DNA from: Escherichia coli
Lineage (GTDB): Bacteria > Pseudomonadota > Gammaproteobacteria > Enterobacterales > Enterobacteriaceae
Assembly (NCBI RefSeq): GCF_003334815.1
Contig: NZ_QOWO01000003.1
Strand: one strand, 5' to 3'
DNA length: 64,000 nucleotides
The notes under the pieces were generated by a model that was not told where the DNA came from, ran no database searches, and saw only the letters and a program-made list of their open reading frames with translations. The position numbers and the translations under genes were made by a program. Numbering within the stretch: the stretch's first letter is position 1; every line of letters starts with the position of its first letter. Positions 30,205 through 30,852 of the stretch are shown piece after piece.

Positions 30205-30852
30205 ATGTATCTTGATACCAGCAACGTACAGAGCCTGAAGGAAAAGCTGCTGTTATGCGCGGTTAATGAATTTGCCGAATATGGTTATGAAGGGGCCAGG
30301 GTCGATAATATTGTTAAGGCTGCGGGGTGTAGTAAACAGACGGTTTATCATCACTTTGGTAATAAAGAAAATTTATTTATTGAAGTACTGGAATATACCT
30401 GGAACGATATTCGACAAAAAGAAAAGGCCCTTGATTTCTCAGATTTTCCGCCACAAAAAGCCATTGAGAAAATTATTGATTTTACATGGGATTATTATAT
30501 TGCTAATCCCTGGTTTTTAAAAATTGTGCATAGTGAAAATCAAAGTAAAGGTGTGCATTATGCAAAATCACAGCGTCTCTTAGAAATTAACCATGCGCAC
30601 TTGCAGTTAATGGAATCCTTATTGGATGAAGGGAAGAAACACAATATTTTTAAGCCAGATATCGACCCATTGCAGGTGAATATTAATATTGCTGCGCTTG
30701 GCGGATATTATTTGATCAACCAGCATACGCTTGGCCTGGTTTATCATATCAGTATGGTTTCCCCCCAGGCACTGGAAGCCAGACGTAAGGTCATCAAAGA
30801 GACAATCCTTAGCTGGCTTTTGGTTGACCCTTCATCTACCGCGCACGAATAA
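30205..30852 (+). CDS. TetR/AcrR-family transcriptional regulator
   Basis: 215 aa from ATG at 30205 after GGGGAAG; N-terminal HTH ([26 protein letters not shown]); strongly AT-rich codon usage. Confidence 0.75.

Follow-up and report, generated by a model that had tools for sequence, protein, structure and literature searches.

Background

Overlaps between convergent genes in bacteria were surveyed by Lillo & Krakauer (2007, PMC2174442), who counted 58 of them in one Escherichia coli genome, found phase 123:132 to be the commonest among those of at least 5 nt (49%), and identified stop-codon mutation as their main origin. ytfA has been described as convergent to ytfB in K-12 (PMC3614548, which also belongs to the YtfB literature), and YtfB has been studied as a cell-division and adhesion protein (PMC7174318). 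Head-on collisions between RNA polymerases are known to influence expression where E. coli genes converge, and collisions at defined positions need a stem-loop in the nascent RNA (bioRxiv 10.1101/2022.10.23.513370).

Here we describe the 3' ends of a TetR/AcrR-family gene and ytfB in a 64,000-nt stretch of an E. coli genome (the window, meaning this whole stretch), which includes the rpsF-priB-rpsR-rplI / ytfB-fklB-cycA region of the chromosome. In K-12 the TetR gene survives as the pseudogene ytfA, and the window carries it intact; the overlap with ytfB is already known and nothing new in kind. The original prediction had taken this overlap for the junction between an accessory island and the core chromosome, and much of the evidence below bears on that claim.

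Results and Discussion

Geometry of the gene ends

The features at the junction were as follows:

30205-30852, plus strand: TetR/AcrR-family gene, 215 aa plus stop (ORF list; RefSeq coding sequence in the near-identical genome L001)
30836-31474, minus strand: ytfB, product of 212 aa, cell-division / OapA-family, LysM-like (RefSeq annotation; homologues with PF08525 and PF04225, the families OapA_N and LysM_OapA)
30836-30852, both strands: convergent TetR/ytfB overlap, 17 nt (sequence and ORF list)
30848-30853, minus strand: Phe-Ile codons TTT ATT of ytfB, the antisense of which forms the TetR stop TAA at 30850-30852

The last codons of the TetR gene are ...TCA TCT ACC GCG CAC GAA TAA (S S T A H E stop), the stop codon occupying 30850-30852. 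Those of ytfB, on the minus strand, are ...TTT ATT CGT GCG CGG TAG (F I R A R stop), the stop codon occupying 30836-30838, where the plus strand reads CTA. The 17 nt thus contain the ytfB stop and its last 4 2/3 codons (F-I-R-A-R) on one strand, and TetR codons 211 (in part) to 215 and the TetR stop on the other, in phase 123:132, with TetR codon position 2 opposite ytfB position 3. The first stop met in the TetR frame gives the 17-nt overlap, while in the two remaining frames the overlap would grow to 55 or 78 nt. Both are real protein-coding genes, on opposite strands with shared 3' ends, and both stops were verified. In L001, RefSeq places the TetR gene at 12106-12753 and ytfB at 12737-13375, with the same 17-nt overlap.

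The coordinates, both stops and the 17-bp overlap as originally predicted are borne out by the sequence, the ORF list and the RefSeq annotation of near-identical genomes, and so is the statement that the genes have no intergenic space and no recognisable terminator between them (the spacer is zero), for which a terminator scan was also used. A sequencing or frame error that misplaced one of the stops, named in the original prediction as the finding that would overturn it, was not found and has a negligible chance of explaining the overlap: the 33 nt spanning it are identical in 3,928 independent complete E. coli genomes, the same stops occur in other species, and TetR and YtfB align end to end with their homologues. 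A 61-nt junction sequence was found in 5,017 of the 5,426 complete E. coli genomes (~92%), K-12 and O157 included, which together with the 33-nt identity rules out such an error. The same 17-nt overlap was present in E. coli, E. albertii, E. whittamii, two further Escherichia lineages and Klebsiella spallanzanii, an arrangement common to all Escherichia species sampled.

The C-terminal tail and the gene under constraint

Pfam matches in the TetR protein comprised TetR_N (PF00440, residues 19-61, 3e-14) and a complete TetR_C_29 (PF17938, residues 83-201, 4e-30). The AlphaFold (AF2) model was all-helical with a mean pLDDT of 92 and a last core helix at residues 187-205, so that Pfam and the model agree on the TetR/AcrR architecture of an N-terminal HTH and an all-helical C-terminal ligand domain. 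For residues 211-215, encoded within the overlap, the mean pLDDT fell to 48. Alignment with orthologues and with Alphaproteobacterial homologues (32-40% identity) revealed that conservation ends at ...ILSWLL (about residue 206), and most of the homologues at 32-40% identity stop 2-3 residues past the last helix, near alignment column 208. What follows in the window is a short tail:

30826-30849, plus strand: non-conserved TetR tail DPSSTAHE, residues 208-215 (delimited by the alignment, the pLDDT and the end of the Pfam match at residue 201)

This tail is probably unstructured.

The YtfB C-terminus was FIRAR or FIRAQ at every YtfB locus compared, with the TetR gene present or absent, and was unchanged across Escherichia, Klebsiella, Entomohabitans, Salmonella and Citrobacter; among the best 120 YtfB homologues most end in FIRAR, with a few variants (FVRAR, FIRVR, FIRAQ and others). 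Variation within the overlap itself was represented by one common polymorphism in E. coli and a small number of substitutions in other species:

30845: A/G polymorphism within the overlap, common in E. coli (L089, L011, L007, L091); His to Arg in TetR, synonymous CGT to CGC in ytfB

At 30848, an A to G change in E. whittamii is synonymous in ytfB (ATT to ATC) and replaces Glu by Gly in TetR, and three further substitutions in the K. spallanzanii overlap are likewise synonymous for ytfB and non-synonymous for TetR. Every substitution seen in the overlap was therefore silent in one gene and not in the other, and always in the same direction, from which it follows that ytfB sets the sequence and the TetR tail drifts. 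A sequence dictated by ytfB beneath a drifting tail is what a neutral by-product predicts.

Junction alleles

Comparison of the TetR tails and the positions of the two stops defined the following states of the junction:

Tail DPSSTAHE, 17-nt overlap: allele A (this window), E. albertii, other Escherichia
Tail DPSSTARG, 17-nt overlap: E. whittamii
Tail TPGSLIGRE, 17-nt overlap: Klebsiella spallanzanii
Tail NPARG, stops abutting (TAA|TCA), 0 nt: E. coli haplotype B, 389 genomes
Tail NPRM, 12-nt gap: E. coli haplotype C, 10 genomes
Tail AK, 15-nt gap: Entomohabitans

Counted from the sequences, the conserved TGGCT (Trp-Leu) is separated from the ytfB stop by 22 nt in allele A and by 25 nt in K. 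spallanzanii, and this distance is 30 nt for haplotype B and 36 nt for Entomohabitans; an 8-nt indel between the last TetR helix and ytfB separates alleles A and B. TetR alleles that have a stop of their own thus end 0, 12 or 15 nt from ytfB, as expected of an overlap that arose through loss or displacement of a stop.

These observations can be assembled into a simple mechanism. The TetR gene of allele A lacks a stop of its own directly past its last conserved helix (...ILSWLL), and the short, indel-prone stretch between this helix and ytfB has no in-frame stop, so that translation continues through the eight poorly conserved residues DPSSTAHE and halts at the first in-frame stop, a TAA that is the antisense of ytfB TTT-ATT. 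Its end point would be stable because ytfB fixes its Phe-Ile codons, and the 14 shared coding bases would follow the rules of ytfB alone because the TetR tail is unconstrained. Taking together the geometry, conservation, allelic variants, substitution pattern and domain limits observed above and the deletion edges observed below, we infer that the overlap is neutral: with a probability of roughly 80%, it is an ordinary convergent overlap produced by stop-codon displacement, with no function of its own, and not the boundary of an island.

Against this conclusion, the 17-nt geometry recurs in Escherichia and in Klebsiella, which might be taken for selection in favour of the overlap. However, same-phase alleles without their own stop must end at the TAA that ytfB fixes, which would occur in about 1 of 3 cases by phase alone, or the geometry may simply have been inherited. 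We considered the K. spallanzanii overlap as a sign of selection and found it a weak one, the shared end being forced by the phase and by the fixed TTT-ATT of ytfB.

Strains without the cluster

On its other side the TetR gene faces the accessory genes that the original prediction had in mind:

21069-29992, minus strand: accessory cluster of eight genes, divergent from the TetR gene

The cluster encodes three TRAP transporter proteins, an FAD flavoprotein, a CoA-transferase, an enoyl-CoA hydratase, a TIM-barrel isomerase-like protein and an SDR. When a 1.5-kb query across the junction was compared with 5,426 complete genomes, it matched in 5,417, with at least 80% of the query covered in only 3,149, and an intact TetR gene lies beside the cluster in at least 3,149 of the 5,426. 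The remaining genomes were of two main kinds. In the K-12 type (L002), the match to the window runs from 30450 rightward and retains the last 402 nt of the TetR gene, a remnant that RefSeq annotates as a TetR pseudogene "missing N-terminus" (ytfA), with yjfZ between ytfA and rplI. The O157/O111 type (L003) has a K-12-like arrangement with an added IS609 (tnpA/tnpB). Neither type showed any change in the final 100 nt of the TetR gene, in the overlap or in ytfB.

30449-30450 (inside TetR): right breakpoint of the K-12-type cluster loss; rightward of it K-12 is 99.4% identical to the window
~30745-30746 (approximate): IS609 insertion site in the TetR remnant of the O157/O111 type

Direct comparison with K-12 placed the left edge of the variable region at ~21010, just past the rplI terminator.

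An island junction would mean that the overlap is the exact point at which the cluster was inserted beside or deleted from ytfB, the insertion having made the 3' end of the TetR gene. Salmonella and Citrobacter do lack the cluster, and their similarity to E. coli ends right past the ytfB stop; the TetR and TRAP genes are AT-rich (41-45% GC against 50-56% in neighbours); and across species representatives the cluster is patchy, being confined to Escherichia, K. spallanzanii and Entomohabitans. However, E. coli strains without the cluster retain 402 nt of the TetR gene and an identical overlap, with breakpoints at ~30450 and ~21010; direct repeats, an integrase or a tRNA were not found at the site; the three junction geometries among the alleles point to later indels rather than to one insertion scar; the divergent haplotype blocks described below cross the junction into ytfB instead of ending there; and the 78-92% identity of the cluster proteins between genera fits an old residence at this site. 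We therefore regard an island junction as unlikely.

Within E. coli, then, the overlap is not an island junction, as the TetR 3' end and an identical overlap persist where the cluster is missing. Neither of the consequences originally proposed was upheld: the YtfB C-termini are the same with or without the cluster, so the last ytfB codons do not differ in strains lacking it, and the deletion edge lies inside the TetR gene, at ~30450, and not precisely at the ytfB stop. The notion of a boundary between cluster and core gene survives only in a weaker, genus-level form, since the similarity of Salmonella and Citrobacter ends past the ytfB stop; on sequence comparison, it is in this sense alone that the cluster has an edge there. 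In these two genera, a convergent EamA-family gene lies where the cluster would be, 33-49 nt from the unchanged ytfB end (FIRAQ/FIRAR), and ytfB has no TetR neighbour.

A search for direct or inverted repeats flanking the cluster edges returned only short chance matches, and the RefSeq annotation held neither an integrase nor a tRNA at the junction; IS609 and IS5 are secondary insertions only, in some strains. GC content is 41% over 30000-30999, against 50-52% in ytfB and 50-56% in the enzyme genes of the same cluster. The drop across the TetR gene (41%) is suggestive and not decisive.

The rplI side of the region showed at least four arrangements:

TRAP transporter, as in the window: 1,446 genomes
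yjfZ and an MFS transporter: L005
hipBA and an MFS transporter: L089
yjfZ alone: K-12

In APEC E19019 (B2-like, L089 1857-3619), a toxin-antitoxin pair consisting of a hipB-like HTH gene and hipA lies between rplI and the MFS version of the cluster, taking the place that yjfZ or the TRAP genes occupy elsewhere, and the rplI-proximal edge is therefore a swap hot spot. The transporter module as such is swapped among strains, TRAP for MFS. K-12 also keeps a 102-nt SDR fragment (L002 5895-5996; window 29802-29903) between yjfZ and the TetR remnant, which shares only 81-82% identity with the window and with L005, the adjoining TetR remnant being 99.4% identical to the window; this suggests from the sequence that the lost K-12 cluster may itself have been a mosaic.

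yjfZ has been proposed as a 'conserved signature' qPCR marker for E. coli/Shigella (PMC11057252), in a paper whose own table includes one strain with a much lower YjfZ signal. The gene (L002 4936-5730) was present in only 2,539 of the 5,426 complete E. coli genomes and is missing from the strain type of the window.

The accessory cluster, its predicted operator and its history

More closely described, the TRAP transporter is of the DctP type, the flavoprotein is a 693-aa protein resembling fumarate reductase and aspartate oxidase, the CoA-transferase is fused and FadX-like, and the hydratase is a crotonase. For the cluster enzymes, NCBIfam gave generic family names, with all matches below equivalog cut-offs except that to the generic SDR model PRK12745.

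30060-30082: palindrome GATCAACCATCTGGTTGGTTGA, in the divergent spacer between the SDR and TetR genes

In a spacer that otherwise varies among Escherichia, K. spallanzanii and Entomohabitans, GATCAACCATCTGGTTGGTTGA is almost constant, with two variable positions, and we consider it the likely operator of the TetR protein, a prediction from conservation and symmetry. A second conserved block, TGATCAC, lies ~15 nt downstream of it.

In Escherichia, K. spallanzanii and Entomohabitans alike, ytfB is adjoined, in an unchanged orientation, by the TetR gene together with at least four genes of the cluster; in the 4-kb flanks covered, these encode the CoA-transferase, the hydratase, the isomerase-like protein and the SDR. 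The cluster proteins are 78-92% identical across the three genera. This distribution fits an old residence beside ytfB, the cluster having been lost or replaced in Salmonella and Citrobacter, and it also fits transfer of the cluster by flanking homology. No cluster protein was encoded within 4 kb of any of the Alphaproteobacterial TetR homologues (32-40% identity), which therefore give no clue to the origin of the cluster or to its substrate.

Termination and convergent transcription

The terminator scan found no site between or at the ends of the TetR and ytfB genes, and the count for the region, 4, did not exceed that in shuffled sequences (2.4 +/- 1.5). One minus-strand match, at 30061-30082, corresponds to the operator-like palindrome. 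An Rfam scan of 29800-31900 at E<=1 returned no match, and RNA folding across the junction on the two strands did not differ significantly from shuffles (z = -0.64 and -1.34). Bidirectional intrinsic terminators occur in the same context as the TetR/ytfB junction, a convergent pair needing two-way termination, but such a terminator was rejected here, since the junction has no GC-rich hairpin bordered by A and T tracts. Between ytfB and the EamA gene of Salmonella, by contrast, a hairpin (AGGTGAAGC...GCTTCACCT) can be seen by eye. Each transcript presumably ends inside the partner gene, through Rho or through polymerase collision.

TetR genes are usually weakly expressed. This general point counts against a regulatory interpretation in which convergent transcription, acting by antisense or interference, couples ytfB to the state of the cluster, the absence of a terminator having been selected. 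Such coupling agrees with the absence of a terminator-like hairpin between the genes, with the conservation of the arrangement across genera, and with the polymerase collisions known at convergent E. coli pairs (bioRxiv 10.1101/2022.10.23.513370). Against it, the TetR gene survives in ~42% of complete genomes (5,417 minus 3,149) only as a remnant without a promoter, and their ytfB sequence is the same; Rfam and folding revealed no conserved or unusually stable RNA structure; and the stem-loop required for collision at defined positions is not evident at TetR/ytfB. We therefore hold this coupling to be quite improbable. An effect of TetR read-through on ytfB as a selected function likewise appears unlikely from the sequences, because 42% of genomes combine the promoter-less remnant with the same ytfB and 7% have alleles without overlap of the coding sequences.

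A specific version, in which the substrate of the cluster de-represses an auto-regulated TetR promoter and read-through, with no terminator to stop it, lowers YtfB by antisense pairing or polymerase collision, is in our view highly improbable. If it were true, a catabolic signal would be coupled to cell division or adhesion wherever the regulator is intact, in 58% of E. coli.

Divergent haplotypes at the same locus

Haplotype B occupies ~1.7 kb (window ~29999-31689; L004 11900-13590) in 389 of the 5,426 complete E. coli genomes (~7%). It spans the SDR-TetR spacer, the TetR gene and the whole of ytfB, and is ~75% identical to the window, with flanks that are 98-100% identical. For ytfB, A and B are 84% identical in amino acids, with a value of 0.47 at third codon positions, and so lie as far apart as Salmonella (0.55) or Citrobacter (0.51). 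Backgrounds carrying haplotype B include SMS-3-5, ATCC 43896 and O22:H8, and RefSeq gives its version of the gene no ytfB name. Mosaics of A and B occur, L005 combining a B TetR gene with an A ytfB. Among the best 120 YtfB homologues, none was closer to haplotype B than E. coli itself (83%), and hence none pointed to a donor.

In haplotype C (10 genomes; L090 4352-5638, equivalent to window ~28950-31260), the TetR gene has ~72% nucleotide identity to allele A and ends in NPRM*, within a divergent block that reaches from the isomerase and SDR genes into the 3' half of ytfB. One K-12-type genome, GDSC2227PM (L091 ~4960-5040, equivalent to window 30834-30866), carries a 33-nt tandem duplication of the junction, CATCTACCGCGC[G/A]CGAATAAAACTGCCATCCGGC, which parts the TetR remnant from ytfB and whose two copies differ at the polymorphic site 30845.

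The divergent haplotypes are recombinant, diverged to the level of genera and segregating within E. coli. Together with the likely operator and the patchy distribution of yjfZ, they are more notable than the overlap, and such deeply divergent recombinant haplotypes may merit a separate study.

Implications and comparison with known overlaps

In itself the overlap matters little, and the gain is the removal of a false lead to an island boundary. For annotation, K-12 ytfA can be described as the remnant of an intact regulator with an eight-gene operon that most E. coli still possess, and the real deletion edges can be placed inside the TetR gene and past rplI. The locus also provides a worked example of a convergent overlap, in which an unconstrained tail meets a stop fixed by the conserved codons of its partner, and natural alleles display the 17-nt overlap, 0-nt, 12-nt-gap and 15-nt-gap states.

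Overlapping ends are not unusual around this locus, with 2 of 7 convergent pairs overlapping in a 25.5-kb annotated stretch. The second case, at window 40238-40248, is an 11-nt overlap of cysQ (39508-40248, plus strand) and ytfJ (40238-40795, minus strand). Like TetR/ytfB, it joins two ordinary chromosomal genes tail to tail, ~9 kb away; unlike TetR/ytfB, both of its partners are core genes. The TetR/ytfB overlap is no more than chance would provide.

Among the closest described systems is the K-12 ytfA-ytfB pair, found at this very locus with its 17-nt overlap in place and 99.4% identical to the window from 30450 on. The difference is that the TetR gene is intact here (215 aa) and still joined to its divergent eight-gene operon, while in K-12 the N-terminal 82 codons are gone, along with the promoter and the operon. 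With the overlaps surveyed by Lillo & Krakauer (PMC2174442), TetR/ytfB shares opposite strands, common 3' ends, a short overlap, the 123:132 phase and the extension of one partner, its own stop missing, into the other; like most of the 58 E. coli convergent overlaps, it is without an intrinsic terminator. We find no essential difference from that class, except that the 0-nt, 12-nt-gap and 15-nt-gap alleles make the displacement of the stop directly visible.
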